Shown here: in pieces, positions 2,612 through 55,925 of the stretch
Layout: every line of letters starts with the position of its first letter
Numbering within the stretch: the stretch's first letter is position 1
DNA from: an uncultured virus (IMG/VR IMGVR_UViG_3300029319_005559)
Lineage: Duplodnaviria; Heunggongvirae; Uroviricota; Caudoviricetes
DNA: 64,000 nt
Reading direction: 5' to 3' (one strand)
Virus record (IMG/VR): IMGVR_UViG_3300029319_005559
The notes under the pieces: generated by a model
The model's input: the letters and a program-made list of their open reading frames with translations, nothing else
Database searches by the model: none
Told to the model about the DNA's origin: nothing
Position numbers and translations under genes: made by a program

Positions 2612-3259
2612 TTAATTGTTCCCTATGTTGTTATAAAATTCTTTATCTATACAATGTTTATTAAACCATTCAAAGCTACCTGTTTTCTTCATATGAGGAT
2701 GTGGTTTATGTCCACCACCACCGTTTAAACCTATACCATGTTTAATACCTATAGCTAACACTTCATTTGGTGGAAAAAATAATCCACCTTTTTTCTGCTT
2801 ACCTTTTATTTTAAATATATGTATATCAAACCATGGATCCTCGTCTTTTGGATAAGTGTTATTGTAAGGTAACTTTACTAAAGAACAAAAAGCCGAAGCT
2901 CTTCCTGGGTGTCTCATGTATAATTTACCTTTACTAAATATATTATAATAGTAAGTTTCAAACACTCCAAACACGTCTGGTTTTAACTGTGCTTCCCATG
3001 CGCTAGTTAACCACTGTATATACTTAGGATGATACCAATCATCGTCTTCCCACAATAAAGCATATTCATGTCCTTTTTTTGTAGCTTCTTGTATTCCATG
3101 TTTATACCTCTGAGTTAAATCTTTATTATTAGATTTAGGTTCATAGTCTACAACTATAACTTCATCAGGTTGTTTTGTTTGAGATTTAATTATATTCCAA
3201 TATTGATCTTTGAAAACAGGTCTATCTCCTCTAGTTGGTGTTATTAAACAAAAACTCAT
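2612..3259 (-). CDS. GT2/GT-A fold glycosyltransferase
   Basis: LITPTRGDRP, QTKQPDEVIVVD and acidic WEDDDWY motif. Confidence 0.75.
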   Translation of the reverse strand: MSFCLITPTRGDRPVFKDQYWNIIKSQTKQPDEVIVVDYEPKSNNKDLTQRYKHGIQEATKKGHEYALLWEDDDWYHPKYIQWLTSAWEAQLKPDVFGVFETYYYNIFSKGKLYMRHPGRASAFCSLVKLPYNNTYPKDEDPWFDIHIFKIKGKQKKGGLFFPPNEVLAIGIKHGIGLNGGGGHKPHPHMKKTGSFEWFNKHCIDKEFYNNIGNN

Positions 3260-9200: not shown

Positions 9201-12200
9201 GCTGTTTAGAAGTAGATTGATCTTCAGACATATTCTTCTTTAAGTTGTTTATTTCTAATTGTAATAAAGCAACTTTTTGTTGGGCATCTGGAGATATAGT
9301 TATTTCACCATTAGCATCGGTAGGTAAATTATTTATTATGCCTTCTACTTCTTCTAAATTTTTTAAACTATTATTATATGCTTCTATAGTTATTTTATTA
9401 TTAGCATATTCTGTTTTTAGTCTTTCCTTGTAAAGCTTATTTAAAGTTTTATTTTTTATTAAGTTAAAAGATGTTGCTAAATAATCTGAGTTTCTTTTAT
9501 TATATCTAGTCTCACTAATACCATTAGCAGTAGCACCTATCAAAGTTAAAGGAAGTGTTGCTATTGAAGTTACTTTAGCTATTTGAGTAACTCTGTCTGT
9601 CATTTCCTTACTAAAGTAATCAGGTGTTTCAAAAAACTTCTTTTGTTTTATATCTCTTAATCCGTTAGTAGCGTCTTGACCTAGTACTTGCCAATACTCT
9701 TGAGCAACTTCAGTAGTAACCTCACCACCAACACCAACTGTTACTTTAAATATACCTTTAGAAATCATATCTTCTATTTCTCTATAAGCAAGATTTCTAA
9801 ACTCTACACCACTTAATCTATTAGCGCCAGGTATTTTACTTAAAATTCTACCAGTTAAACTTTGCGAGACAAGTGACTTTTGAAAAGCTGATTTAAACTC
9901 GCCAAGACCTACCTTTTCTAATATAGCTGTACCTGCTCCTACAAAAGTTTTATAAAATAATTTTTCTTCATCAGATAATATAACATCGTCATAGTTAGGA
10001 TTTAAAACTTTATTACCTTCCTCATCTTTAACTATACTTCCATCTGGATTACGTTTGTACATTAGTTGTTCTTTCATATGCTCAACTTCTGTATCAATAC
10101 CAGTCATTACCTTACCAGACGCTGATAAACCAAAACCAATACCAGGTGCAAATGGTAATGCAGCTGTTCCTAATATGAAGTCACTAGCCATATCTATTAT
10201 TACACCAGCTCCTTGTCCCCACTCGCTTTCTTCAAATCTAGCTGCATATGTAGGATCTATATTATGTTTTCTATACTTTTGATTAAAGTTTATATTAGCA
10301 GCGTTTCTGGTTCGTTCTATTATGTCATTCCACTCTTCTTCATTATCCATTTTAAGAACGTTCTTATCAAAAGCTTTCATTAATTCATTGCCATAAATTT
10401 TTAATCCAACCATTGAATCCTTAAACCCTTCAAAAAATCTATTATGAACCCAGTCAGTAAATGAACCTCTACCAGCGTTGTTAACTGCCCACTCTTCATA
10501 TGTAATTATAGAAGCATCTATAGCAGCTTCTGCTTTATCAACTGATTGATTTAATCTAATATTGGTAGATACAAGATTATTATACTTATTAGTTATATCA
10601 GTATATTGGTCAGCATAAGAATTAAATTCTTCTAAAAATGTTTTACCACCTCTGTTCTCGTATTTTTTATAAGCTTTTTTATAATCCTTTTCTTTGTCTT
10701 TAAGATACTCTTCATTATCTTTTACAATTTGTTGATTTCTAATTATATCTTTTCTAAGTTGATTAGATAATCTAACTATAGGTTGTATCCTATTTAAAGT
10801 TTGTTGATCTTCAATAACACCATCTCCATCAGGATCAGCTTTTTCTATAGCTACTTGTAAGTCCTCATATTGAGTATATACTTTATTTATTTTATCTATA
10901 GCTTGGTCAGTTTCTTTTCTAACCTTTTGATAATCTTCATCACCTTGTAAAGTTTGAAAAGCTTCATTTAAATTTTTAATTATCGGAGAATTCTTTTTAA
11001 AGTAAGATTGTATCTCTTTTATCTCTCCTTCTAACTGACCTTGTATTTTTGTGTTTTGATTTATTTGTATAACACTTTCATCTGCTTCTTTTATTTGTGC
11101 TTCTACAAAAGCAGGTGTAGGTGATTTAACTACATTTAAAGCATCGGTATTAAAATAAGGTATACCTTGATTACCATCTGCATCTGCTTGTGCTTTGCCT
11201 TGCATCCAAGTAAAAGCTTCTTTTAAATTATCAGTATATTTATTTAATTGCCATCCATCAGTGTCTTGTGTCCAGTTATTCCACGTATTATCTATATAAG
11301 TTTTTTCGTCTCTAAATAAACCTATTGGCCCTCTTTTAATAAAACCTCTTAAACCTACATTTCTATCTTCTGTATAATCTATAGGATTTCTATTTGTAAC
11401 TGGTAGCAATACAAAATCAGAACCTTCTTTTGGCTTAGCTTGTCCACTTATCTTATCTAAAACGTTTATATCTTTTATCTTACCATCTTTGTCTGTTAAT
11501 TCTTCAAACTCTGGTCTATAATAAACTCTTATGTTGTTAGCAAAGGAAGTGGCATCACTTCCTCTCATAGCTTGATTTTCACTTTCTAAATCTTCATCAT
11601 ACATGAAGTAAAAACCAAACGGGCCGAATGTTTCGTTTAATAACTCAGCTGATTCATAAGGTCTTTCAGCTTCTGAAAATGTACCTTTAGCTCCTTCATA
11701 TCTATATCCTGTAGGCATATTTACAAAGTCAAATAAAGCTTGAGCTGGAGCATTAGCAAAGTTACTAGTTATTTCTAAAGGAGCATTGTTAAAGTCATCT
11801 ATCTTTAATAAATTATCATATTTATAACTACCATCATTAGTCTCTTGATCAAGTATGTTAAAGTTATAGTTAGCTAACTCTGCTGTGATCTTATCTTGAT
11901 ATAAATCTGTAGCTTTTCTTTTTTCATTTTCAACTTCTTCTGGATCAACTAAAGTTTGAAATGGTTGAACATAGTCAATACCAAATCCTGTTTCAGCTGA
12001 TGCTAGTTTAGTTTGTTGATCAAACTCACTAAGTAAAACAGTAGGTCTATAGCCTTGTAGCTTACCTTTTTTATCATACACTTCTTTCGCTACTACTAGT
12101 TGTCTTTTAACAGTTAGTTCTGCTTCTGGATCTATATCTTCTTCTGTTAATAATATTTCTTTTTGCAGATCTTTGCAAGCTTCTAAAGATTGATCTTGCA

Positions 12201-13002
12201 TTTTGTTAATATCATTAAGTAACTGTGTTTGATTTTCAGTAGTTAAATTTTGATCTGATAATTTATTAACGTTGTCAGCTATATTATTATCTATATCGCT
12301 AACTTGTTTTTCTAATTTTTTATAAGCATCTGATTGCTCTCGTCTCTGTTGAGATTCATTTAAATTTTTTCTTTGTTCTTGGTCTAAGCCAGCTATATAA
12401 TCTGAATTTTTACCCGGTGTAGATCTAGGTGTGTATATATTTTTAGTAGCAGTACCTATAACTCTTACTCTTCCTGTTGCTGGAGAATTAAAAAACACTT
12501 CTCCGCTTTCATCAACTTCAATACCTTCTATATTATTTGATAATTCTTTTATACCAGCTTCATCATAATCACTTATACTTGTAGCTACATCAAACTCATT
12601 ATAAGCCCTTAAGTTATTAAAGTTTTTACTTTTAGTTAACCAGTCTTCGGCTGTAGTTTCACTAATTTTTTTCTTTCTATTATTTCTAAATCTCCACTTC
12701 TTATCATCACTTTCTGTTACTTCAATAAGATCTTCCTCTTGCTCAGCCTTCGGTGACTCCAATGAAATATCTTCCAAATCTAAATCCCCATTCTCGTCTC
12801 CTGCCGCAGTTGGGGTAGTCTCGACAGGCGGATTCTTTTCCACGGTAACAATATCTTCTATCTTTTCTTCTTCAGGTCCACCGTCTTCTACAGTAGTTAT
12901 ATTGTTAACACTTAAGTAATTATCTAATGTAGTATTACTAGCTTTTACAGCTTCATCTATTTGATCTTGAGTATACTCGTTGTCGTTCCAGATATATTTC
13001 AT
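3259..13002 (-). CDS. Giant (3247 aa) putative internal/ejected virion polyprotein with HExxH and HAD-like domains
   Basis: Last large gene of the structural block; HEGFH motif; VFDFDDTL...VLTAR...FADD HAD motifs. Confidence 0.7.
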   Translation of the reverse strand: MKYIWNDNEYTQDQIDEAVKASNTTLDNYLSVNNITTVEDGGPEEEKIEDIVTVEKNPPVETTPTAAGDENGDLDLEDISLESPKAEQEEDLIEVTESDDKKWRFRNNRKKKISETTAEDWLTKSKNFNNLRAYNEFDVATSISDYDEAGIKELSNNIEGIEVDESGEVFFNSPATGRVRVIGTATKNIYTPRSTPGKNSDYIAGLDQEQRKNLNESQQRREQSDAYKKLEKQVSDIDNNIADNVNKLSDQNLTTENQTQLLNDINKMQDQSLEACKDLQKEILLTEEDIDPEAELTVKRQLVVAKEVYDKKGKLQGYRPTVLLSEFDQQTKLASAETGFGIDYVQPFQTLVDPEEVENEKRKATDLYQDKITAELANYNFNILDQETNDGSYKYDNLLKIDDFNNAPLEITSNFANAPAQALFDFVNMPTGYRYEGAKGTFSEAERPYESAELLNETFGPFGFYFMYDEDLESENQAMRGSDATSFANNIRVYYRPEFEELTDKDGKIKDINVLDKISGQAKPKEGSDFVLLPVTNRNPIDYTEDRNVGLRGFIKRGPIGLFRDEKTYIDNTWNNWTQDTDGWQLNKYTDNLKEAFTWMQGKAQADADGNQGIPYFNTDALNVVKSPTPAFVEAQIKEADESVIQINQNTKIQGQLEGEIKEIQSYFKKNSPIIKNLNEAFQTLQGDEDYQKVRKETDQAIDKINKVYTQYEDLQVAIEKADPDGDGVIEDQQTLNRIQPIVRLSNQLRKDIIRNQQIVKDNEEYLKDKEKDYKKAYKKYENRGGKTFLEEFNSYADQYTDITNKYNNLVSTNIRLNQSVDKAEAAIDASIITYEEWAVNNAGRGSFTDWVHNRFFEGFKDSMVGLKIYGNELMKAFDKNVLKMDNEEEWNDIIERTRNAANINFNQKYRKHNIDPTYAARFEESEWGQGAGVIIDMASDFILGTAALPFAPGIGFGLSASGKVMTGIDTEVEHMKEQLMYKRNPDGSIVKDEEGNKVLNPNYDDVILSDEEKLFYKTFVGAGTAILEKVGLGEFKSAFQKSLVSQSLTGRILSKIPGANRLSGVEFRNLAYREIEDMISKGIFKVTVGVGGEVTTEVAQEYWQVLGQDATNGLRDIKQKKFFETPDYFSKEMTDRVTQIAKVTSIATLPLTLIGATANGISETRYNKRNSDYLATSFNLIKNKTLNKLYKERLKTEYANNKITIEAYNNSLKNLEEVEGIINNLPTDANGEITISPDAQQKVALLQLEINNLKKNMSEDQSTSKQQRIEIQNREQAIERVIEEDLANGGMKTWLVNEQINKARNEKIARDNEAIKNANIDVTLDQIGNLMLDGADQKTLDAEAAKIEEEMRKIPGQENFTLDPSQYKLSEVNSENFKVIVYDESNIDEVAKDYNTTPEDLNEASEGQFIPSRGVVLMSSEAAKGVKQHEGFHVYTHHGLRKPENAGIARQVANSLLEKIARLDPEAAGVISKQIQEKYDTDESYTDADRAEEIMAYYVQLKSGNNRFKGSSLSDLVRPIRRMLQNVGLRDVKLNRKNVKTFIDDYIFALESGKGLTKAQERFARGEVVLPQTKPDQTVAPQVTEEVAVEETVDTTVEPATQLKAKSIEDVTLLEAINNLLPDDIDTKEKYDAFIRDERKAKPIIDALNQPGGAINNYIRSKQVSQEEGNQMIENTLFRLFNFNPEETRADGTVVGPQGFGERIFADTRFASMDARKKLAQEAAKKKQEVRQDDEAVREIAAEPQDVSGPETKAKPAPRSKITRDFPEIFDEQLKDEFETSAFEMFESEMPEVNEKDYKGFMTDVQRAKMTDATKKKLGTGKNYEFAVKKLAPKMREYFPIQWFVRMEGQTKPENRIFTNPPRRLTTQAEIDAAMRRDDVYVENTAQGVNLYTFKDFDTKELIDYLLAPPISPTTGKRSGLRGTRKTGLAEGVVDVVSKDVTPSVVKRVSKVKDKIGKISEKVQRDPNTLFAKKGIDKLLKDVGIQPLKSINSKGVVTVPEDIAAFENFMLETFPNYLPGFLINSGTFANNRKGKSQFLTSQRRGEIQSEVNAKQDLKNLGLTNRELQALQELGKNVNNWWNKIMDIGTRLFNNEKWKEAKKLKNEGLEVLWRQFNKMYKADPENAKYIAAIIQTSSANSGHIMRMAGYPVGFETKWKGKRKPEREHVIPANQIGEFLFKAMMKGVPLDKAMELVNDNYFQILINKDTDDKIKAAGFQSVMPDGFFESWLDAIDKDTPPQTFLVRYFHPDVNNKVGPDGQVGINPNELFVNLDGKTKTISDLNNIGSNVFNTKQLTFPNVISLQQKLLYDIGSNKISKAEATKIAKKYAADLANEQQQANNLNDNLVGESGVVLHSKKMDMETLLSKAVTLDEALRIARDPNAPVKKIRVFDFDDTLAQTNSLVFYEMPDGTRAQLTAEEFAKDGARLVEEGAVMDFSDFNIVRDGKRGPLFEVAEKIKAARGNEDLFVLTARAPESQQAIYEFLKSEGLEFKIDNIVGLGNSTPEAKANWIVDKAAEGYNDFYFADDAMKNVKAVKDVLDVVDVKSKVQQAKVLKSKKLSTDFNNILEDKSGIGSEKTFSKAKAKILGEKKGKYKFWIPPSAEDFVGLMYPILGKGKKGEQQMKWIKDNLLDPWAKGMANLQQDRLNLMQDFKALKKSLNVPKKLRQTNSTGFSNEQAVRVYMYTAMGHDIPGLSKTDLKELNDIVANDPDLKLFAEQVLLITKGDGYPKPGQSWLAGTITTDLIDLLDTTKRQKYLQEWQENADIIFSEENLNKLEAIYGAKYREALENMLGRMKSGKNRVTGGNRLSNRVLDYINGSIGTIMFFNTRSAVLQTISAINYVNWSFNNPIQAGKAFANQPQYWKDFMMLMNSDYLRDRRNGQRINISESEILDAAKTSRNKAKSAINYILSKGYLPTQFMDSFAIASGGATFYRNRINNLLKETDAEGNKVYTKKQAEEIALREWAELAEENQQSSRVDKISQQQASDLGRIVLAFANTPMQYARIQKRAFQDLVNGRGDAREHISKIIYYGFVQNLIFNAMQQAVFALGFGDDEEDDEKKNEKYYDTLNGMLDSTLRGLGIGGQAVSVVKNFLLDIYERSGRSRPEYVDSMWKLLQFSPPVSSKISKLRQAAWQFDSKKRREKIFEGGFGLDNPAYEAFAKVVSAAANIPLDRALQKFNNIEAAFAEDTDWWQTVAMLAGWPEWQIKPKDKKRDKKNKSIIIDDGGVSATSSKTSTSKPIIVID

Positions 13003-15605: not shown

Positions 15606-17306
15606 TTAAGATGATTGTACAAATTTAGTTCCAACAGACCATATTTCTTTTAAACCTCCTACGTCTGTAGAATCATCTGTTGATATAGTTACTGTAGCAA
15701 AATAAGCTTTTATACCACTCATTTGTGCTCCAAATAATATACCATCTGGTCTTTGAACTGAGTTGTTTATTAAATTAGCTACGTATAAGTTTTCTTTTCT
15801 ATCAAATCCTGCTCTTAATATATAACCTTGACTATCAGCGTATCTACCTTCATCATAGCTTTTTACTGATGTAGTTGTATCTCTATAAGAATTAGAACTA
15901 TTATATGTAAGTGGATTTGATATAGGAATATCTGGATCTATTTGTTGAAAATCTGAAACAAATGAATTTATTTGATAACCATTGTCTCCTTCATAGCTTA
16001 TAGTTTGAAAAACTTTTTTAGTTGATGGATTGTCATTAACAACAAATTCCACTGATGACCCAACATAATTGTTATAAAAATTACCTCTATTATTATTACT
16101 TATTTCATCATGATGTTTCCATAATTTACCATTAAAAGTAGTAAAATATGTATCTTTTAAACTAAATATATTTGTTGGATTATAAGTATATCTACTAGGC
16201 CAACCTCTAACTGATTCATCAAATGCTGTTGTTTCATATTCTTGTAATTGAGATGGAGTTAGTTTAGCTTGTTGTAAAGATATAACATATTGTTTATCAA
16301 ATATATCCCAACCGCCTACTACTTTATCCATTACTGGTTTACTAAAAACTAATTCATCAGGAGAAGTTCCACATGTAAGAGTTATTGCTTGTGATAACGT
16401 AACTTCATTTATAGCGTAGTCAACATCTGTAACATAAGCGTTAGTTTGTAATCCGTTTATAGTAACAGACATTCCTATTTCAATATCGTCAGCAGAGTTA
16501 TCAAGTATTATTACTGTACTAGGATTTGGCGTAGGACAATCAGATGTAGTAGCACTTACATTATACGTTTTAAAATTAGAAGATATTTTTTTAAGTTCAT
16601 CTCTAAAATAATCAGACATTCCATATTCAGATATCTCAGTTAATCCATCACGTGATAATCTCATTATAGACCCTCTAAATGCATCAGCAAAGTATCTTCT
16701 ATATCCATATCTAGCAAAACTTTCTGGATTATCTGATATTCCAAAATCACCTACGTAAGGTACAACTTGACCAATAACTAAATTAGTAGAAGTTACAGAA
16801 CCTCCTCCTTCAGCCGTATACAATGCATCTTTATCAATTAAAGCTCTACTTACCTTATTTTGTTGTAATATAGTTAAGTCATTATCACTAGCGTAAGTTC
16901 TTTGTATCGGACCATATGATGGGTCTAATGATTTAGTAATGTCTTCACCTACAGAAAATACATTTGTTTGATTAAATCCTGTTCTACTGTTGTAAACACC
17001 TGAGTATATTATACTATTAAACCTATGTTGTTGATTAATGTTTTCTTCATTAGCATAAGCTTTAACGCCAAAATCAACACTGGTATTATTAAATCCACCT
17101 AATATCCTAGATTCTTCAATCATCCACTGTAAAACATCGTAAGCTGGGTCTATATTAACATTGTTAGGATAAGCAGGATAACCGGGTGGATCCCATACTA
17201 AACCAGGCCACGATGCAACATTAGTTACGGGTGGACCTAAATCAGTATCTACAATTCTTTTATTCCAAAACGCGTTAAAATATTTTATTTTTATTGTACT
17301 TGACAT
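15606..17306 (-). CDS. Tail nozzle/stabilisation protein, C-terminal-type subunit
   Basis: IIYSGVYNS, DPSYGPIQ, FGISDNPESFA and RLSRDGLTEIS beta-propeller-like motifs of podoviral tail tubular B-like proteins. Confidence 0.6.
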   Translation of the reverse strand: MSSTIKIKYFNAFWNKRIVDTDLGPPVTNVASWPGLVWDPPGYPAYPNNVNIDPAYDVLQWMIEESRILGGFNNTSVDFGVKAYANEENINQQHRFNSIIYSGVYNSRTGFNQTNVFSVGEDITKSLDPSYGPIQRTYASDNDLTILQQNKVSRALIDKDALYTAEGGGSVTSTNLVIGQVVPYVGDFGISDNPESFARYGYRRYFADAFRGSIMRLSRDGLTEISEYGMSDYFRDELKKISSNFKTYNVSATTSDCPTPNPSTVIILDNSADDIEIGMSVTINGLQTNAYVTDVDYAINEVTLSQAITLTCGTSPDELVFSKPVMDKVVGGWDIFDKQYVISLQQAKLTPSQLQEYETTAFDESVRGWPSRYTYNPTNIFSLKDTYFTTFNGKLWKHHDEISNNNRGNFYNNYVGSSVEFVVNDNPSTKKVFQTISYEGDNGYQINSFVSDFQQIDPDIPISNPLTYNSSNSYRDTTTSVKSYDEGRYADSQGYILRAGFDRKENLYVANLINNSVQRPDGILFGAQMSGIKAYFATVTISTDDSTDVGGLKEIWSVGTKFVQSS

Positions 17307-17308
17307 AT

Positions 17309-20300
17309 TTAAAATGTTGGATCTACATAATATCTTAAAATTACATCTTCATCGACTACTTGTAATCTTATTCCACTGCCATTAGCATCTACTAAATCGT
17401 AAGATATATGCCAGTTTGTTTGAGCCATACCTCCTGATTGTCCTATACCAGGTACTAATCCGTCCCATCCAGGCGTTGCAGTTGCAGGATTACTAATGAA
17501 TAGTCCTAATCCAGTTACACTATCGTCTGTTGTATCTAGTTGACCTTCTGTAGGATTGCTTGGATCATTTATTCTAGCTTGACCTAATTGTATAGTAACT
17601 CCTGAGCCATCATATCCTGTAGGTAAGTTTGTGCCTCCAGTATAACTTATTGTTAAGTTTTCAACTTTTAACTCTGCATATACATTATCATTTTGAGCAT
17701 TTGTAGAACTACCATTTGTCGTTACAGCGCCTCCGCCTGTGTAATCATCCTCTTCATATAGTTGACTTCCAGTTGCAAAACTACCTAAATAAATAAGATT
17801 ATTATATATTGGTCCACGATCTGGAACAGGTCCTATTTCTGGTGGTGGTCCCCAATTCCAGTAAACGCCCCCAGGACCAGGTGGTAGAGTTGTTGATGGA
17901 GATAAATTAGACATAGCTCCAGTAAAACTTAAGTCAACAGTTTGAAAAAGTACTACACATCTAACTGTAAATGTATAGTTTCTTATTTGACTATTTTGAC
18001 CAAAATAATTATCATAGTTTGAAACATCGTAAGTTAATCTTATATAAAACGTACCATTATTATTATCTACTAATTCAAATATATCTACTGGATCACCTAA
18101 GGCATCTTCTACACTAATTAAATTAAAACTAGCATTTGGATCATTTATTTCAACACCATCATTATTTACCGTTTGCATGTCAATTGTAACTCCATTACCA
18201 GGTGGTTCATTTTCAAAAAACGCAAATTGAGGATTTGTAAAAGCTACAGGAGTTGTAGTATCTCCATCTATAACATCTGCATTTAATACTGATATCAAAC
18301 CAGAAGAAGTAGTTTCATAAAATATATCTAAGTTAGATTCAAAAGGTTGTGTTTCTCCTATTGCTAAATATGGAAGAAATCCAGTTTCTTCTGCTACACC
18401 TACAGCTTCTGTTGTAGATAATATACCTATTAGTGGATTGTTATTAGAATTAAACACTACACCTGGAGGACCAAAGGTCCACGTTGAAGCGTCAGCTATA
18501 GCAACGGTGGAATCTTGATTTAAAACTACAGTTGATCCTGAAGCAGTAGCATAGTAAGCTTTTACATAATAATTTTCTGAAGCATTAATTTTTTCTGTAC
18601 CACCCTCAAACACACTTATAACAGAAGAACCAGGTTGTATATCTTCGTCAAAAGAAGAAAAATCAAAAGTATCTTGATTAGCAAGTTCACTTCCACTTTG
18701 CTCTAGAGATTTTTTACCTATAGAAATACCAAGATTACTTAACTCTGATATCTGCGTCACTCTTTGGTCTATAGGACCACCATAAAACTGAACGCTGTTA
18801 TGATATGATGGAACTTTCTCATTTACAACTCTTAAATTTAAACTTTCTGTAGATCTATATATAGTTTGACTAGGTCCTACTTGAGATATATCTTTAGGAA
18901 CTTTATTTATATTATCAGAATACAAACTTATAGTTGCTTCTGTGTTACTAGAACTGCCATCTTTATTAATAGCTCCGTTAACTATACCTGGTAGATAAGC
19001 GTTATAATATTCTTGTTGTTGTTGTTTTACGACAATTTTATAACTATACCAACCTAAGGGATTTGTTGTGCTATATAAACCTGGGTAACCAGGTGCATTA
19101 ATACTTGATGGTATTTGTGACTTAAAAATAACTTCGGCTAAATCACCTGGCCAACTTGCGTTTGAAGGCGTAGTAGTATCTAATACTATGCTGCTTGCGT
19201 TTCTATAAGCTTTATACAATGTAGAACCTTTAAAAGCATCTGCTAAACCAGCAATGACACCATCATCTACTTCAGAAAGTATAACATCTGAAGATCTTCC
19301 ATATCTATCACTTAATACTATACCTATTTGATATGTTCTATTGTCTTTTAAAGTGTGGTTTTGATACTCTATAGCTACTGTATTATCGCTTTGACTATCT
19401 TTTTCATTTATGTTGGTATTGTAGTTTAACGTTGTAGGGCTAGTGTGCTTATCGTAAAAATTAGAATACAATATTCTATTACCTACAGCTGTTAATGTTT
19501 TAGCTCTTATTGGTGATTTATCATAAACCCTAACAGTTTCTGAATCAGGTAAAGTTCTTATTGGTTTTCTTGATTGATACACATATTGCAACTTGTCTAT
19601 AGTTGTACTAACTAAAGTACTATTATCTATAGTATCTAAAACTTTTATTGATGTTTCGCTAGCGTCTTTACTTATTATGTCTAATTGTTTTATTTTTAAT
19701 TCACTAACAGCATCTGCCCAGCTAGAAAAACCAAGTGGAGCAGGCAATATTAAACCTACTTCATCAATTTTATTTCTCATCAATCTATTTTCTGTACTAG
19801 ACAAAGCCCAATACTCATCATTATCATCTGCAATAAAATCACCTGTTGATGGATTATATGTTTCATTTAAAAAATAACCATCATTTCTTGGAACAAAAGC
19901 TATTTGAGTAAATGGTGCTATTAGAGAATATTCATCATCATCAAATTTAAACCTATAGCTAAATCTTATAAATCGTTCTTTTAAATACTCAGGATCTCCT
20001 GGCCAAAGAGAATTGTAGTCAGGATTTAGATTAGTAGTTCCGTCTGGTTGAGGTGGTAGATATTCATCAGATCTATTTCTCATTGTAGATATACCTGTGA
20101 CAGAAAGTTGAAATTCACCTCCGGAACCAGGAACAGCAAGTCTTACTAAAAGATCTACGACGTCACCATTAGTATAACCAGTACCAGGTTCTGTTATTTC
20201 TATTCCAGTTATTTCACCAGTGACTGGGGATACACTTGTTATAGTTAGTATCAAACCTTCTCCTGTTCCACCAACTAAACCGTTTGCTGGTATCTGATAT

Positions 20301-20926
20301 GGTAAAGTTAAAGCTTGATAATTTTGCCCACCGTCTATAATAGAAACACTCTGAACTTCTTCTTTATATAAATCTATTGGTTGAAAAGGATAATACTTTG
20401 TAACAGATATATGATCTTCATTAGTGTAATAACTTGAGTTAGCCAGAGCTGTAGTTATATTTATTTTACGAGGTTGATTTCTATTGTCAGTAAAAAATAA
20501 AAGATCTTCAATAACATCTACACCACCTATTGGATGTGTTTTTGAAAAGTTTAAAAAATTACCAGATACTAATTGATTAACTGTATTAGTATCAGCATTA
20601 TAAGCATATATATAATGAGCTGAATTAGATGGAGCAAAGTTAGATAAATAATCTACAGATGTATCAGTATAGTTAGTTATAAAAAAATATATTAAATCTT
20701 TTTGTTCATCTACATAATAACCTATAATTTCTAAATGTTTATCAGTTAGTCCAAAATCAGATACTTGTATATTACCTTTTATATTTTGAACAGTACCTAC
20801 ATCTTCTCCTTCAGATCTACTTACAGTTATATTTATAGCATCTCTATACTCTCCTTTAGCAATTAACCTAGCGTCTATGTCTTTATTCATTTTAGACGCT
20901 GTAAAAGTATTTTTACTTTCAGCCAT
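17309..20926 (-). CDS. Tail nozzle/stabilisation protein, N-terminal-type subunit
   Basis: N-terminal KMNKDIDARL..GEYRDA.N; LLFFTDNRNQPRKINI; RFSYRFKFDD; YQIGIVLSDRYGR. Confidence 0.65.
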   Translation of the reverse strand: MAESKNTFTASKMNKDIDARLIAKGEYRDAINITVSRSEGEDVGTVQNIKGNIQVSDFGLTDKHLEIIGYYVDEQKDLIYFFITNYTDTSVDYLSNFAPSNSAHYIYAYNADTNTVNQLVSGNFLNFSKTHPIGGVDVIEDLLFFTDNRNQPRKINITTALANSSYYTNEDHISVTKYYPFQPIDLYKEEVQSVSIIDGGQNYQALTLPYQIPANGLVGGTGEGLILTITSVSPVTGEITGIEITEPGTGYTNGDVVDLLVRLAVPGSGGEFQLSVTGISTMRNRSDEYLPPQPDGTTNLNPDYNSLWPGDPEYLKERFIRFSYRFKFDDDEYSLIAPFTQIAFVPRNDGYFLNETYNPSTGDFIADDNDEYWALSSTENRLMRNKIDEVGLILPAPLGFSSWADAVSELKIKQLDIISKDASETSIKVLDTIDNSTLVSTTIDKLQYVYQSRKPIRTLPDSETVRVYDKSPIRAKTLTAVGNRILYSNFYDKHTSPTTLNYNTNINEKDSQSDNTVAIEYQNHTLKDNRTYQIGIVLSDRYGRSSDVILSEVDDGVIAGLADAFKGSTLYKAYRNASSIVLDTTTPSNASWPGDLAEVIFKSQIPSSINAPGYPGLYSTTNPLGWYSYKIVVKQQQQEYYNAYLPGIVNGAINKDGSSSNTEATISLYSDNINKVPKDISQVGPSQTIYRSTESLNLRVVNEKVPSYHNSVQFYGGPIDQRVTQISELSNLGISIGKKSLEQSGSELANQDTFDFSSFDEDIQPGSSVISVFEGGTEKINASENYYVKAYYATASGSTVVLNQDSTVAIADASTWTFGPPGVVFNSNNNPLIGILSTTEAVGVAEETGFLPYLAIGETQPFESNLDIFYETTSSGLISVLNADVIDGDTTTPVAFTNPQFAFFENEPPGNGVTIDMQTVNNDGVEINDPNASFNLISVEDALGDPVDIFELVDNNNGTFYIRLTYDVSNYDNYFGQNSQIRNYTFTVRCVVLFQTVDLSFTGAMSNLSPSTTLPPGPGGVYWNWGPPPEIGPVPDRGPIYNNLIYLGSFATGSQLYEEDDYTGGGAVTTNGSSTNAQNDNVYAELKVENLTISYTGGTNLPTGYDGSGVTIQLGQARINDPSNPTEGQLDTTDDSVTGLGLFISNPATATPGWDGLVPGIGQSGGMAQTNWHISYDLVDANGSGIRLQVVDEDVILRYYVDPTF

Positions 20927-40714: not shown

Positions 40715-41586
40715 TACATTTTAAACTTTATAGTAGGTAAATTAACTATACCAGATTCTTCTATTTCTCTTAAATTATCCATATCTACAAATGGTTTAGC
40801 CAACATTGGTAGATCGTCAGGAGTTGATGCTCTTTGTTCAAATATTAATTCTTCATTTTCGTTAATGTATATTCTAGGAGGTCTATTGCTACTTTCCTCA
40901 CCATACATTCCGCCACTTATCATTTCACTTATATATTCTGGAAAAACATTATAATTACCTGATTGTGCTAAAGCGGCTTGTAAATCCTCTATTTCAATTT
41001 CACCTTTTTTACTATTTTCTTTAATATATTTTTTTACTCCATATATTTCTTTACTAGTTAAGTTAGGCAAAGCTTTAGGTTTCCAACCATACTCAGTTTG
41101 TGTATACAATCTTTTTTCTTCTGGTATGTCATCATATAAATTTAAAGCTATTGAAGCTCTTTGTTTTTCTCTTTCGTTACGGTCAGTATCATATCCTAAA
41201 CTATTCAATTTAACACCATATTCTACTTCTGTATTTTCTTCTTGTACATTTTTTTCAAGATTAGGTATTATATCTTTTTCTACTATTTCACCACGCGATA
41301 AAGCAGCGCTTGGATATGCTTCTGAACTACTAATAGCTTTTAGTACATCTCTCCTATACTCTCTTTCTTCAGGAGTCATTACATTTGGATTAGGTCTTTT
41401 ATTATAAAAATCTATCAACGTATTAACGCTGCCTATCATTTTATCTGCATTTTCTTCACCATACTCATAGTTCATAGCCCATTTTGCAATTCTGGGTGTT
41501 TTAAAATGTGGAACCTCTTCTCTAGGTGGGTTATTAGGTCCTCCTGTAAAAGGATTTTTACTATTAAATTTATCTTTAAAACTCAT
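40714..41586 (-). CDS. Hypothetical protein
   Basis: 290-aa coupled ORF. Confidence 0.55.
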   Translation of the reverse strand: MSFKDKFNSKNPFTGGPNNPPREEVPHFKTPRIAKWAMNYEYGEENADKMIGSVNTLIDFYNKRPNPNVMTPEEREYRRDVLKAISSSEAYPSAALSRGEIVEKDIIPNLEKNVQEENTEVEYGVKLNSLGYDTDRNEREKQRASIALNLYDDIPEEKRLYTQTEYGWKPKALPNLTSKEIYGVKKYIKENSKKGEIEIEDLQAALAQSGNYNVFPEYISEMISGGMYGEESSNRPPRIYINENEELIFEQRASTPDDLPMLAKPFVDMDNLREIEESGIVNLPTIKFKM

Positions 41587-41843
41587 AATACTATAACTAC
41601 ATCTTGTTCTTTAATAACTTGATATTGCTGTTTATCTATCTCTATTTTAGTACCAGCTACTTTGTCATAGTATATTTCATTACCGGCTTTTACGCCGTTA
41701 ACATCGGTACCTACAGATTTTACTTTAGCAATTCTATATCTAATATCTTCTCGTTGCTTTTCAGTTAAGATTAAACCACCTTTGGTTTTTACATTTTCTT
41801 CTTTAACTGGATCAATAACTATATACTTACCTACTGCTTTCAT
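41583..41843 (-). CDS. groES: Co-chaperonin GroES
   Basis: KTKGGLIL mobile loop, VKSVG, VKAG and IKEQDVV motifs. Confidence 0.85.
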   Translation of the reverse strand: MKAVGKYIVIDPVKEENVKTKGGLILTEKQREDIRYRIAKVKSVGTDVNGVKAGNEIYYDKVAGTKIEIDKQQYQVIKEQDVVIVL

Positions 41844-43387
41844 GCTCTAATATTATTGATTACACAATCTGTACTCATAATAGTAGTAGCTACTGAAGCC
41901 GCATTTTGTAAGGCACTTTTAGTTACTAGCAAAGGATCTATTATTCCGGTCTTAACCATATCTACCGTTTTTCCTGTAACCACGTCTAAACCTCTGCCTT
42001 GTGTTATTGGAGTTTCATATTCATCAACGCCTGCGTTCTTTAATATTATTTCATATGGCTTTTGTATAGCACAATATAAAACTTCTTCACCTATGTTTTT
42101 TGGTTGTAGCTTTTGCGAAGCATTTAACAAAGCTATACCACCTCCAGGAACTATACCTTCCTTTATTGCGGCTTTAGTAGCGCATATAGCATCTTCAACT
42201 CTATCTCTTTTTTCTTTCAACTCTACTTCAGAGTTAGCACCTACTTTTACAATAGCAACTTTAGCTTTTAGTTTTGCTAATCTGCTTTCTAATCTTGTTA
42301 TTACGGCGGGGCTTTTTGTACTAGCTATTTGCTCTTCAAGTCTACTTATTATTTCTTTTACTTCTTCATTGTTGGTTAAGTCGACTTTTAATATAGTATT
42401 TTCTTTATTAGTTATAGATCTTTCACATGAACCTAAATAGTCGATGCTGATTAAATCCATATCATCTCCGAGATCTTCGTTAATCAGTGTTGCACCTGTT
42501 ACAGCGCACAAGTCTTCTAATGTTTCTTTTCGATTAACTCCATAGCTCGGTGCATCAATGATGTTGACTTTAATATTGCCTTTCATTTTGTTCATGGCAA
42601 GCGCGTTCATTACTTGTGGATCAACATCTGCTATTATTAATAAGCTTTTCTTTTCTTTTATAACATGTTCTAATACTGTTTGTATTTTACGTATATTAGA
42701 CACTTCTGATTCTACTATAAGAACTAATGGTTGTTCTAACTCTGCAGCACCGTTCTGCTTATTAGTTATAAAATGAGGATTTTTAATAGCTTGGTTATAT
42801 TCAACACCTTCCACTAATTCAACCTCCGTTCTAGGTTGATCATTAGTCTCCATCATTACTATACCTGTTTCATCTACTAATTTAAAAGCTTGTGCTATTA
42901 TTTGCCCTAACTCTTTATCATTGTTAGCGGATATAGTAGCTACTTGATCTATTTTTTTACCACTAATTTTCTTACTATTCTTTTGTAAGTATTTAATGAC
43001 ATTAGTTACAGCTGTATTAATTCCATCTTTTATACTTCTTAAATCATCTAGCTGATCATGCTTGCTATACTCATCTAGTATTGCGTGTGCTAATACTGTA
43101 GCTGTAGTAGTTCCATCACCTGCATCTTTAACAGTTCTTTGTGCTGCCTCTTTTATAAGTGTAGCACCAATATTTTCTAATGGTTTACGTAACGTTATGC
43201 TATTTGCTACTGTTACTCCGTCTTTGGTTATAATTGGTTTACCGTGTTTATCTTCTAATATAACACATTTTCCGCTGGCGCCTAACGTAGATGATACTGC
43301 GTTAGTTAGTTTATTTACACCAGCTAGTATCTGGCTTCTAGCATCATCGCCAAAAGCCAGATCTTTTACTAGCATTAGTTCTTCCAT
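41840..43387 (-). CDS. groEL: Chaperonin GroEL
   Basis: ITKDGVTVA, AGDGTTTATVLA, KVGANSEVELKEKRDRVEDA, GIVPGGG and GIIDP motifs. Confidence 0.95.
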   Translation of the reverse strand: MEELMLVKDLAFGDDARSQILAGVNKLTNAVSSTLGASGKCVILEDKHGKPIITKDGVTVANSITLRKPLENIGATLIKEAAQRTVKDAGDGTTTATVLAHAILDEYSKHDQLDDLRSIKDGINTAVTNVIKYLQKNSKKISGKKIDQVATISANNDKELGQIIAQAFKLVDETGIVMMETNDQPRTEVELVEGVEYNQAIKNPHFITNKQNGAAELEQPLVLIVESEVSNIRKIQTVLEHVIKEKKSLLIIADVDPQVMNALAMNKMKGNIKVNIIDAPSYGVNRKETLEDLCAVTGATLINEDLGDDMDLISIDYLGSCERSITNKENTILKVDLTNNEEVKEIISRLEEQIASTKSPAVITRLESRLAKLKAKVAIVKVGANSEVELKEKRDRVEDAICATKAAIKEGIVPGGGIALLNASQKLQPKNIGEEVLYCAIQKPYEIILKNAGVDEYETPITQGRGLDVVTGKTVDMVKTGIIDPLLVTKSALQNAASVATTIMSTDCVINNIRA

Positions 43388-52119: not shown

Positions 52120-52711
52120 AAAATGGAGTGACTACATAGATCTTCATAAAAATAGAGATTTTATAATATGTGGCAGAGGTAGGTCATTACAACTTTTAAA
52201 AGACACTAATTCTATACTTATTGGTGTAAATGACATAGAGAAATATAGATCTGTAGATTATTTAGTTGTAGTTGATAGAATAGCTCAATTTACAAGAGAA
52301 AATAGACACGAAGAAATATTAAACACTAAATCAAACACTTTCTTTACTCAAATAGATGAGTATGCAGTCGGTTATTCTAATTTCAATTACGATAAAGTAT
52401 GTAAAATAAACATAAAGAATATTAGACAAGATCATCAAATAGATAAAAATATTTGCTACGCAAGTAATAACTCAACATTTATAGCATGTAGCATAGCAAT
52501 AAATATGGGTGCTAGAAATATAGGTATTATAGGTGTAGACATAACAGGTCACAAGAGTTTAGCAAGTGAAAACTCTTTAAAAAAGATAAATAGAGATTAT
52601 AGTATATTAAATAACTTACATAAAATATACAATTTATCACCAATAAGTAAAATAGAAGCATTAGAAAGTATTAGTATTGACGACTTTCACAAATTAAATA
52701 CGAATGAGTAA
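52088..52711 (+). CDS. DUF115/MptE/Maf-like glycosyltransferase-related protein
   Basis: IICGRGRSL, IGVND, DYLVVVD and NST..A..IAINMGARNIGIIGVD motifs. Confidence 0.6.
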   Translation: MARRRKIVLTKKWSDYIDLHKNRDFIICGRGRSLQLLKDTNSILIGVNDIEKYRSVDYLVVVDRIAQFTRENRHEEILNTKSNTFFTQIDEYAVGYSNFNYDKVCKINIKNIRQDHQIDKNICYASNNSTFIACSIAINMGARNIGIIGVDITGHKSLASENSLKKINRDYSILNNLHKIYNLSPISKIEALESISIDDFHKLNTNE

Positions 52712-52719
52712 AGATAATA
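52688..52719 (+). promoter_or_regulatory. Early promoter motif copy 4
   Basis: CACAAATTAAATACGAATGAGTAAAGATAATA. Confidence 0.75.
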
Positions 52720-52724
52720 ATAAC

Positions 52725-52868
52725 ATGAAAACAATTAAATTTTACCCAAGCGATAGGTCACTAATAAGATTAGATGGCAAAATGATTAAAGGTTACAAGT
52801 TAAACGATGTACCATACGAGAGAAATAGTTGGTTCAATTATAAAGGTTTAACATTTGTAATCGACTAA
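52725..52868 (+). CDS. 47-aa early protein not in the ORF track
   Basis: MKTIKFYPSDRSLIRLDG...FNYKGLTFVID, directly after promoter copy 4. Confidence 0.55.
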   Translation: MKTIKFYPSDRSLIRLDGKMIKGYKLNDVPYERNSWFNYKGLTFVID

Positions 52869-52930
52869 TCCACGATCGCAGGCTTTTATGGCGGACGCGA
52901 GTGGAGGCTGAGTGACGGCTCAGCTTGGAT

Positions 52931-53006
52931 AGCGAGGTTCGGTGTCATATGTAAAAGTGATGAACTGTTCTAGACATGAGAGGTTCGACTCCTCTCTCTC
53001 GCTCTA
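52931..53006 (+). ncRNA. tRNA-like element 1 (acceptor and T arm only)
   Basis: AGCGAGG/TCTCGCT stem stacked on GAGAGG-TTCGACT-CCTCTC; no canonical D or anticodon arm. Confidence 0.55.
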
Positions 53007-53009
53007 AAT

Positions 53010-53086
53010 GGGCACGAAAGTTGGAAGGGTGCAACCGCGGCGTAAGCAAAGGTGCACAAACGGTGGTTCGATCCCACCCGTGTCCA
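53010..53086 (+). ncRNA. tRNA-like element 2 with alanine identity elements
   Basis: GGGCACG/CGTGTCC acceptor with G3-U70 and A73; T arm GGTGG-TTCGATC-CCACC; non-canonical interior. Confidence 0.65.
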
Positions 53087-53090
53087 CTAA

Positions 53091-53122
53091 CACAAATTAA
53101 ATACGAATACTAATAGATAATA
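53091..53122 (+). promoter_or_regulatory. Early promoter motif copy 5
   Basis: CACAAATTAAATACGAATACTAATAGATAATA. Confidence 0.75.
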
Positions 53123-53127
53123 CATAC

Positions 53128-53568
53128 ATGAAATGTACACATCACATACCAAAAGCAAGACTAGCACTAGGTTATACTACCTGTGTTCAATGCTCAACAG
53201 AGCAAAAGCTTGGCTGTATCGATACTATTAACCACAAAACAGGCAATAGTATACAAGTTATGTCACGTGAAGATGCCGATCAGGCAAGTAAATTACTTCA
53301 GCGTGCAGGTTATTCTACGTTACGTGCGTTATCAGGTAAATCTGCAATGCCAAAACGTAAAATACTTCATGGTTGTAGGCTAACTGACGTAGGCAGTGAC
53401 GAGCTTTATCAACAAGTCGGCAAGCAGTACATGGATTATCTTGACGTAGACAAAGACATTGCGCAGCGCTATCTCGATCGAGCGCTCAACAATTTTGAAA
53501 TATCTCAGTTGCAGTACAACAAGATCAAGCAAATTTGTTACAGACTAAATACGATCACTAGTAGATAA
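53128..53568 (+). CDS. Protein with DksA/TraR-like zinc-finger N-terminus
   Basis: C...IPKARL....TTCVQC. Confidence 0.5.
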   Translation: MKCTHHIPKARLALGYTTCVQCSTEQKLGCIDTINHKTGNSIQVMSREDADQASKLLQRAGYSTLRALSGKSAMPKRKILHGCRLTDVGSDELYQQVGKQYMDYLDVDKDIAQRYLDRALNNFEISQLQYNKIKQICYRLNTITSR

Positions 53569-53583: not shown

Positions 53584-55925
53584 ATGCAACAACATATAGA
53601 AGAAATAGCCAAAGATATAATGGCGGGTTTGTACGGCACCCAACAACATGCCGGTACTGAGTGGCAAAAGTGGACCTTCGCTCTTTTGCAAGCACGAAAG
53701 ATCTATGACGGAGAATTACTAATCGATACTAATCACACACCAACAATATGAGTGTTAAGCAATTAGAAATTACCAAAAAACTACAAAACTTGTACTCTTG
53801 GACACAATTCTATCAAGAAACTGGTAATAAAGAACAAATAAGAAAGTGTCAAACTGAGATCGCCCAGTTGAAAAAGGCGTATAACGAAACTAAAAAGAAA
53901 TAACATGAGCGACAAAGAAGCATTAGATGAGATAGTATTCATGGTAAATGACTTTGTAAACAATGCAGAATATGAATTACCTTGGAACTTTATATATGAT
54001 TTAATAAGGTTTATAGAACAAAATGTGATACATTGCGCTATGGATAATAACTATAAATAATATGGGAAATATGAGTTACTGCAGGTTTGAAAACACTGCA
54101 AATGATTTAGCAGACTGTGTGTCTGCACTAATGAGAAACGAAACTGAAGATCTAAACCATTATGAATTAAACGGATTAGCAAGAATATTAGAATATGCTA
54201 ATGACATTGTAGATATGGAAGATTATATAAACGATATACTAGATGCAAATGAAGACTAGAACAATGAACGAACTTAGGCAAGAGAAAACTTATGGTTATA
54301 AAGCACCATTTGGTATGACTCACAAAGAAGAAAAACCAAAAGGTTATTCAGAGATTGATATAGAAACTACTAAGGACCTGATATTCAACAGCTTAAAGAA
54401 TAAGTTTTACGATATGATATTTCAAGCAGTATGCGATGAAATGTCAAAGCATGAAGTGTTTCAAGAAGAAACTTATTTTACACCGCAAGGTATGGATGAG
54501 TTTGAAGATCAATGGTTTGAGTTTTATCACGAGCATCATGGTGATATACTAGGTTCTATAATGAAAGATTTTACAAACTAAATACGAACACTAATAGATA
54601 ATAATATTATGAAAAAATTTAATAAAATGGAGTCTAATCTTATATGTGATGCACTTGACTATTACGTTATACAATTAGAAGCTGACATAAAAGCTCTAGA
54701 AGAAAGCGGCAAAACATCTATATTTGCACCTGGGTTTTACCCAATGATAAAAGATGAACTAGTAGCCAAGATCAAAAAAGATATGACTAAAAAACAAACC
54801 TTTTAATACCTTAACCAAATGGCAATATGGAATGAAATACAAGAGCAGTTGAAAGAGTTGCAACAGCTACTTGATGAAAGAAAACAACTCGACCAAATAT
54901 ATAACCAATTAAAAAACCAACATGACGGAATCACAGATCCTAAGTAATCTACAAGCACTAGGTGCTAAAGATACAACAAGCGATGTACAAAAGAAAAACG
55001 GTACAACTTGCTTTACATTACCAACAGGTGACTGTATATCTGAACACAAAACAGGATATATCAGGAAAAATCTACTAAACAGCAATGGCGGTATATATAC
55101 GTGCTATCAATTAAATCCAACTTACAAAAGCGTTCATAAGTATATACTAGAAGATGGCAAGGTAAGAGTATTTGATAGAAATAACAGAATGTTAATATGG
55201 TCAAGAAAGCAAAGATTATACAAACTATTATTATACACTATAAAACAAATTAACAATGCTAGAAATTAGAAACGAAAGACTCGTAGAACTAGTTAAAAAT
55301 CATTTAAGTATATCTATATCTACTAGTTTAGACGACTGGTCTAACGTAGATTGTAGAGTATATAGTGAATGTACTGCAGACGGTTATGACTTATATGTTG
55401 TAACTAATGAAAAAGATCATCCTATTATATGTGAAGATTGCTATCAATATGATCATGATATTGCTGATGCAGTAAGAGAACAAATAAGATATGGAGATGA
55501 AACTTTTTATATTGATCTAGATTTATACAATGATTGCTACATACAAGATATGTTAATAGAATTATTTGTAGATCACGTAGAAGATATAGTTGAAGATGAT
55601 GACTTAGATATAACATTAGAAGAAATTAACTACTTAAAAGAAGAATATGGCCTCACAGAAGAAGTCGAAGACTGAACAAAAATTACCTAAATGGTTCAAA
55701 GGCATGGTATACAGAGAAGGTGCAGAAGTAACTAATCCTTTTTCAGGTGAATCATATGAACTAACAGGTGTAGAACTATCATTGTATGACTTTATAATGG
55801 GTTGTAATATGGTGTTTGAATCTGTACCTAACTCAATGACTAGCAAGAGAATAAAAGAATTTCAACAAGCATTAAACTGGTTTAGAGTAAATAATCCAGA
55901 AGCATATTATGTCTTGCTAGACTAA
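53584..55925 (+). other. Run of short early hypothetical ORFs (incl. 54062-54259, 54243-54581, 54609-54806, 54922-55269, 55256-55675, 55647-55925)
   Basis: Overlapping plus-strand ORFs; 54062 begins with MSYCRFENT..DL.DC, a recurrent phage pattern. Confidence 0.6.
54572..54603 (+). promoter_or_regulatory. Early promoter motif copy 7
   Basis: TACAAACTAAATACGAACACTAATAGATAATA. Confidence 0.75.

Follow-up and report, generated by a model that had tools for sequence, protein, structure and literature searches.

A putative tmRNA gene reduced to its tRNA-like domain in a marine crAss-like phage genome

Results

Genomic locus

We analysed a stretch of 64,000 nt from an uncultured virus (IMG/VR IMGVR_UViG_3300029319_005559), hereafter called the window. 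The source phage has a G+C content of about 33%, encodes a large terminase and a portal protein, and carries two ORFs that scored above the Pfam cut-off for the crAssvirus muzzle protein. Beside the muzzle-like proteins (15606-20926) lies a 3247-aa ORF on the minus strand (3259-13002) without a Pfam match, a candidate for the giant virion protein known from crAss-like phages, and genes for GroES-like (Cpn10) and GroEL-like chaperonins adjoin one another at 41583-43387, also on the minus strand. From about 49 kb onwards, small plus-strand genes are tightly packed. A gap of 259 nt between two of these ORFs was found to hold two G+C-rich tRNA-like elements, the second of which is the mini-tmRNA-like RNA described here. 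The features of the region are as follows.

52704..52868, plus strand: upstream small ORF, 54 aa, no family match
52870..53004, plus strand: element #1, a conserved structured RNA in its own right, just 5' of the mini-tmRNA and not part of it
53010..53086, plus strand: putative mini-tmRNA gene consisting of the tRNA-like domain (TLD) only, 77 nt, ending at discriminator A73; matched by R1 (the family covariance model described below), RF00023 and RF04321
53010..53016, plus strand: acceptor 5' strand GGGCACG, with G3 of the G3.U70 pair at 53012
53017..53028, plus strand: stemless D-loop analogue AAAGTTGGAAGG, 12 nt, with A8-A10 and a GG kept
53029..53057, plus strand: P2-like hairpin predicted by folding, 7 bp with one bulged A and a 14-nt loop
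53058..53061, plus strand: AAAC linker 5' of the T arm; (U/A)AAC in the family, GGAC in the bacterial tmRNAs L117 and L119
53062..53078, plus strand: T arm GGTGG/TTCGATC/CCACC with a 5-bp stem
53079..53086, plus strand: acceptor 3' strand CGTGTCC (53079-53085) and discriminator A73 (53086)
53094..53121, plus strand: repeated intergenic motif between the RNA and the next gene, with a second copy at 54575-54602
53128..53568, plus strand: downstream ORF, 146 aa, no family match; used as a query for fetching relatives

The repeated intergenic motif, AAA(T/C)TAAATACGAA(T/C)ACTAATAGATAAT, lies about 30 nt before consecutive plus-strand genes and has many similar copies in related contigs. Its core, TAAATACGAA-AC, precedes three consecutive plus-strand genes and is also present at 53546, and the motif is probably a phage promoter or leader. 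No terminator-like site was found near the mini-tmRNA.

Layout of the window RNA

The acceptor of the window copy, read directly from the sequence, is a 7-bp stem made up of the pairs G1-C72, G2-C71, G3.U70, C4-G69, A5-U68, C6-G67 and G7-C66. G3.U70 together with A73 constitutes the established identity rule for AlaRS. The place of the anticodon arm is taken by the P2-like hairpin, whose strands are GTGCA[A]CC (53029-53036, bulged A in brackets) and GGTGCAC (53051-53057) and whose loop tip reads GC-GTAA-GC (GC-GUAA-GC in RNA), a GNRA loop. The span between the D loop and the linker is 29 nt. No pseudoknots, for which there is no room, and neither a tag reading frame nor a resume codon were found in the window RNA.

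The original prediction had described a 77-nt RNA with a 7-bp acceptor containing G3.U70, a discriminator A, a 5-bp T stem and a stemless D loop, and this layout proved correct. Its length of 77 nt held, and the span that it gave, 53010-53089, was too long at the 3' end: the RNA ends at 53086, and the last three bases are the trailing CTA. CCA is not encoded. Among the flanks of the virus-contig loci, CTA likewise follows most family copies, the exceptions being CTC (L040), CTG (L067), CAA (the first copy of L047, and L049) and TCA (L050).

Homology and covariation

Default ARAGORN called no genes in the 64-kb window, and Rfam gave no matches there at the gathering score. The folding energy was also unremarkable (z = -1.0, with 30 of 200 shuffles folding equally well, for the interval 53011-53087, which is one base off the RNA), so that the significance of the window RNA comes from homology and not from folding energy. 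An exact search with the hairpin revealed near-identical copies in other virus contigs, and an exact search of virus contigs with the 3' half gave no matches. With a gapped pattern, at least 31 family loci were found in uncultured-virus contigs. An alignment of 34 unique related copies (A1), from which the window copy, L056 and L063 were excluded, was used to construct the covariance model R1, which was thus built without the window copy. R1 matched the 64-kb window once, at exactly 53010-53086 (45 bits, E = 1.2e-8), and gave no second match in the window at E ≤ 10.

The proposed helices were paired in 95.9% of the cells of A1 compared with 85.5% in shuffled alignments, none of 500 shuffles reaching as high a value, and slid controls gave pairing of only 33-55%. 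Two-sided changes were found in all four P2 closing pairs, in two acceptor pairs and in two T-stem pairs. In the D-loop analogue, A8-A10 show no variation and conservation of the GG is 90% or higher; R1 aligned the window sequence AAAGTTGGAAGG opposite the family's GAAAU.GGUUAG. The invariance of G1-C4 and positions 69-73 in A1 is not independent evidence, because the gapped pattern had fixed them. When a second pattern left the acceptor free, all 19 loci recovered had the same G3.U70 acceptor and A73; these loci came from contigs already found and form one subfamily, and since their acceptors are identical to one another they show conservation rather than repeated evolution.

The results define a common plan, in which the 7-bp acceptor is followed by GAAAUGGUUAG(A) and a helix of any sequence and length, and then by (U/A)AAC, the T arm, the acceptor 3' strand and A73. 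Family copies total 69-103 nt, with a conserved core and a hairpin that is hypervariable yet always paired. The T stem is GCAGG/CCTGC in most copies. Relatives of the window copy differ from it as follows: L037/L063 have the same interior with the acceptor GGGCGTG/CACGTCC, so that between the window and L063 two acceptor pairs, 5:68 and 6:67, differ by compensatory changes while G3.U70 is kept; L042/L061 have the same hairpin with GAAA replacing GTAA; and L056 is predicted by folding to form the same 7-bp helix with a bulge from a different sequence. In some records (G002, with L059/L114; L047; and L112) two mini-tmRNA copies with unlike hairpins lie a few hundred bases apart.

We also scanned bacterial genomes with the 3' end of the main family. 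Six of the 25 loci were further stripped copies, all in MAG contigs, and the others were 14 Acidobacteria tRNA-Lys genes and five fragments of that 3' end; no full tmRNA was among the 25. The Acidobacteria tRNA-Lys(CTT) genes (L089-L110) have T-arm and 3' acceptor letters in common with the family, and the five genome-contig loci that hold just the 3' end look like attachment-site scars. Collectively, the comparative data indicate that the window RNA is neither a chance structure nor a decayed tRNA but belongs to a conserved phage family, within which it is divergent.

Comparison with tmRNA and tRNA models

To 19 of 20 family loci, the best match in the Rfam clan was the bacterial tmRNA model RF00023 (33.2-41.9 bits over model positions 1-374 with about 320 positions deleted; 36.9 bits for L034), every score being lower than the gathering score of 47 bits. 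RNAs of 76-77 nt from MAGs, which were taken as ordinary tRNAs, reached 25-28 bits on this model, so the margin of the family over tRNAs is modest. The window copy, given as a 96-nt query, scored 13.7 bits on RF00023 (53010-53089, model 1-374, about 320-328 positions deleted), and its 3' part scored 19.9 bits on the permuted-tmRNA model RF04321; both models outranked tRNA for this copy, and both matches were weak. L056, from the window's subgroup, had no Rfam clan match. The window copy thus has the stripped architecture of a DS6A-type TLD-only tmRNA and is, weakly, closer to tmRNA than to tRNA.

Three MAGs with stripped copies contain one full-length tmRNA each (142-174 bits). The full-length tmRNAs of two Bacteroidetes-labelled MAGs have the D loops CTGGTTTTGAC and CCGGTTTTGAC, which the family D loop (AAATGGTTAGAC or AATGGTTAGAC) resembles, and have GGAC 5' of the T arm, a place taken by (T/A)AAC in the family. 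The window copy, with AAGTTGGAAGG and AAAC, is more divergent still. The D loop of the main family and of the two bacterial tmRNAs closes with GAC, which is missing from the window copy, and predicted SmpB binding is therefore less secure for this copy than for the main family. Furthermore, its pair 4:69 is C-G, whereas G4 is present both in the Rfam consensus and in these two bacterial tmRNAs.

A tRNA interpretation was examined with ARAGORN. Neither the default settings nor the relaxed tmRNA mode called any of the 34 copies in isolation. At the relaxed 80% threshold 27 of the 34 were called as tRNAs, with 20 different 'anticodons' (four letters long in 8 of the 27 calls) and an acceptor that was often shifted, and Ala(agc) was assigned to the window copy and L063 only. 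No consistent anticodon was found across these 34 copies, and the window RNA does not form a canonical cloverleaf, in which a 5-bp anticodon stem would carry a 7-nt loop with a conserved anticodon.

Three other candidate structures were rejected. An alternative D stem, GTTG/CAAC, which underlies the tRNA-Ala(agc) call at 80%, overlaps the 5' strand of the hairpin and is absent from the main family. A tmRNA called by relaxed ARAGORN at 52893-53087 with the tag GHESWKGATAA* takes its 5' strand from inside element #1, giving A3-U70; the tag overlaps the true acceptor strand and is not conserved, its stop codon is the GTAA tetraloop and is lost in L042 (GAAA), and the closest homologues, L063 and L056, carry the RNA right after a stop codon without element #1. 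A relaxed call of an intron-containing tRNA-Thr was an artefact bridging element #1 and the mini-tmRNA.

Taken together, these comparisons suggest that the window RNA is the tRNA-like domain of a tmRNA with everything else removed and one short capped hairpin in its place. The claim of the original prediction that the locus encodes a tRNA-like domain of the tmRNA type that has alanine identity and lacks a tag frame was supported by the compensatory changes in the family, by tmRNA being the best Rfam match and by the inconsistent anticodon. Relatives carry the stripped RNA or nothing at this position; a cloverleaf tRNA, which would have spoken for simple decay, was absent from them.

The neighbouring element #1

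Element #1 has two 5' hairpins; 3' of these, a GCGAGG/CTCTCGC stem stacks on the T arm AGAGG/TTCGACT/CCTCT (52979-52995), and a hairpin insert varies between a few and about 70 nt. The first hairpin is closed by CCAC/GTGG and its interior covaries; the second has the loop (T/C)GACGG, which is conserved, and a stem with four or more compensatory variants, and is separated from the GCGAGG/CTCTCGC stem by TGGA(C/A)A. No Rfam match was obtained for the element. We found 18 element #1 loci in virus contigs (L016-L033), all of them without the mini-tmRNA, and L063 and L056 have the mini-tmRNA without element #1. In L025 the insert of element #1 is the same GNRA-capped hairpin as that of the mini-tmRNA, with GAAA in place of GTAA. 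The ATG of the next gene lies 2-3 nt past element #1 in many relatives. RNA-library contigs cover the 3' part of the element in relatives.

When compared with a Bacteroidetes-labelled MAG tmRNA, element #1 of relatives showed three colinear short blocks, GGGGCTGA, GACAGCGAGG and GGTTCGACTCC; the window's element #1 has only the third block, GGTTCGACTCC, in full, plus 7 letters of the second, GACAGCGAGG. We see a slim chance that element #1 and the mini-tmRNA are two tmRNA-derived RNAs in tandem and could form a phage toolkit for rewiring the ribosome rescue of the host. If so, they might for example provide rescue without proteolytic tagging of phage proteins, and the hypervariable hairpins would be an arms-race face toward host factors that recognise tmRNA-like RNA.

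Distribution and linked genes

The large terminase of four carrier phages was 70-78% identical to that of the window, and that of one non-carrier 81%, which places the carriers and the window phage in the same broad group. As a positive control, R1 detected the RNA in all five known carriers (six copies). It found none in five records chosen by the 146-aa neighbour protein, and none in five chosen by element #1, so that with ten related phage records lacking it the mini-tmRNA is a dispensable, accessory gene. Its position also varies: it precedes the 146-aa gene in the window, follows the homologue of that gene in L063 and L056, and sits among tRNA genes in some contigs. Main-family copies are mostly preceded by a few recurrent flanks (upstream flanks of L038-L068), for example one ending in CCAGTCCCGTCCACCTCTCAAAT. 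In L034/L042 the RNA is preceded by about 190 nt that in L034 resemble a large structured RNA in which GAGAGGT/ACCTCTC forms the closing stem and GACGGGA/TCCCGTC an inner one, and that gave no Rfam match in L034 at E ≤ 1.

Pfam analysis of 64 of the 77 window ORFs and of 38 ORFs around four other copies revealed nothing informative that was linked to the RNA. SmpB was found neither in five carrier phage records nor among those 64 window ORFs, and no integrase was found among the 64. RNA-library contigs from four runs aligned to the region and were 90-99% alike, coming from relatives that lack the mini-tmRNA; none of them covered it, and one diverges at 53006 into the downstream gene of the relatives. 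A BLAST search of 50,697 phage records with the region and one family member gave no match or matches of T-arm length only, and for this reason we name no isolate as a carrier.

Discussion

We give about an even chance to the reading that the locus is a TLD-only tmRNA gene whose product is a mimic competing with host tmRNA for SmpB and stalled ribosomes. The RNA probably competes with the host's rescue-and-tag system, and it may do so as an alanylatable, SmpB-binding mimic that modulates host trans-translation. The decoy role toward SmpB, AlaRS or EF-Tu that had been suggested at the outset could hold by analogy with phage DS6A. The further suggestion of a decoy for tRNA-targeting defence found no support, since the RNA has no anticodon loop to cut.

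In the proposed mechanism, the RNA would be co-transcribed with the small genes of the early region, cut by RNase P at G1, trimmed by a 3' nuclease and completed by CCA addition, a step that we infer because CTA and not CCA follows A73. Host AlaRS would charge it through G3.U70 and A73, and host SmpB, together with EF-Tu when the RNA is charged, would bind the elbow, the D-loop analogue and the P2 helix as on tmRNA. As the RNA has no resume codon or reading frame, trans-translation could not be completed; the predicted outcome is competition with host tmRNA for SmpB and stalled ribosomes, with tagging lowered or redirected during infection. The phage has no SmpB of its own among the 64 window ORFs scanned, and such action would therefore have to go through that of the host. 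There is precedent for inhibition of this kind: a molecule like that of phage DS6A strongly inhibits tmRNA whether it is chargeable or not (PMC4131195), and in E. coli the endogenous tmRNA is inhibited by the DS6A form itself (PMC11915505).

The same structural evidence would serve a tag-free ribosome rescuer, which we consider unlikely. Here the charged RNA and SmpB would accept the nascent chain in stalled ribosomes and other factors would resolve the complex, so that ribosomes on cleaved mRNAs would be freed and the proteins left unmarked for proteolysis, as has been proposed for organellar tmRNAs without a message. Such message-less tmRNAs, known from mitochondria and two plastids, co-occur with SmpB and are thought to aid with incomplete mRNAs (PMC11915505), and in vitro a TLD-only tmRNA can act as the acceptor of peptidyl transfer (PMC3895274). 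Against tag-free rescue, no release mechanism is known or encoded nearby, the neighbouring ORFs being without an informative family, and DS6A, the one phage form tested, inhibited tmRNA and did not replace it (PMC4131195, PMC11915505).

The RNA might instead be a processing or stability signal, that is, a site for RNase P or a 3' nuclease or a protective end within a polycistronic early transcript, its alanine identity being a relic. The mini-tmRNA and element #1 occupy exactly the space between small genes that are tightly packed, and in many relatives 2-5 nt separate the 3' end from the next start codon (CTATG); the lack of a nearby terminator-like site also agrees with such a role. We nevertheless regard it as quite improbable: G3.U70, A73 and the D-loop analogue are kept although RNase P needs none of them, while the hairpin varies freely, and ten related phages with a similar gene array manage without the RNA.

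Slightly less probable still is another use of the alanine acceptor, as a sink for AlaRS or EF-Tu, as a non-ribosomal alanyl donor, or as bait for a host factor that senses tmRNA-like RNA, in which case the hypervariable hairpin would be an arms-race surface. The hairpin does differ in nearly every copy around a fixed core, over the total lengths given above, and PMC10542128 describes fusions of SmpB-like domains with predicted RNA-targeting restriction helicases. Among the ORFs scanned, however, neither the window nor four other carriers have a linked gene for a transferase, a sensor or a partner, and a hairpin under no constraint would vary equally.

That the locus is a functionless decayed tRNA-Ala gene, or an attachment-site remnant of a tRNA or tmRNA gene, is very improbable: the Ala(agc) calls at 80% and the coincidence of the family 3' end with the 3' ends of Acidobacteria tRNA-Lys genes point that way, but neither half is missing and the two pair with each other, the acceptor, T stem and hairpin show compensatory changes, the 'anticodon' varies between copies, tmRNA models outrank tRNA, and no integrase accompanies the RNA among the ORFs scanned.

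The preferred reading, a TLD-only tmRNA that competes with host tmRNA, can be set beside four known kinds of RNA. A canonical tRNA-Ala has the same identity set, G3.U70 and A73, and the same standard T arm, whereas the window RNA has no anticodon arm or conserved D stem, is not called by default ARAGORN and is ranked higher by tmRNA models than by tRNA. With bacterial tmRNA (RF00023) it has in common the 7-bp acceptor, G3.U70, A73, the T arm, a stemless D loop with GG and a helix that replaces the anticodon arm. It differs in having no pseudoknots, resume codon or tag frame, with about 320 model positions deleted and a score below gathering, and in its C4-G69 pair, its unencoded CCA and the missing GAC/GGAC junction letters.

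The jakobid-type mitochondrial tmRNAs (RF02544) and the Mallomonadaceae plastid tmRNAs are likewise reduced to the tRNA-like part, of about 65 bp in plastids (PMC11915505). Those message-less organellar tmRNAs are vertically inherited and have a dedicated SmpB, in contrast to the dispensable accessory gene described here, which is carried by phages in which no SmpB was found. The closest likeness in kind is to the tmRNA of Mycobacterium phage DS6A, described as 'little more than the TLD' (Mao et al. 2009, as cited in PMC4131195 and PMC11915505), which is also phage-encoded and has no tag frame. The window RNA comes from another phage lineage, marine and crAss-like with a probable Bacteroidota host, and its family has a capped hairpin that is hypervariable; by BLAST its sequence is unrelated, no phage record having matched.

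In the literature searched we found DS6A and the organellar message-less forms only, and no description of the marine crAss-like mini-tmRNA family. Since such RNAs are missed by default ARAGORN and by Rfam at the gathering score, phage annotations under-report them. The dozens of natural minimal TLD variants in the family, in which the core is fixed and the hairpin free, could help to establish the requirements of AlaRS, SmpB and EF-Tu. If the RNAs of the family bind SmpB, interference with trans-translation would be a recurrent strategy in a marine crAss-like clade, beyond one mycobacteriophage. In summary, the TLD-only kind of tmRNA is already known from DS6A, and the marine family adds a member to it.
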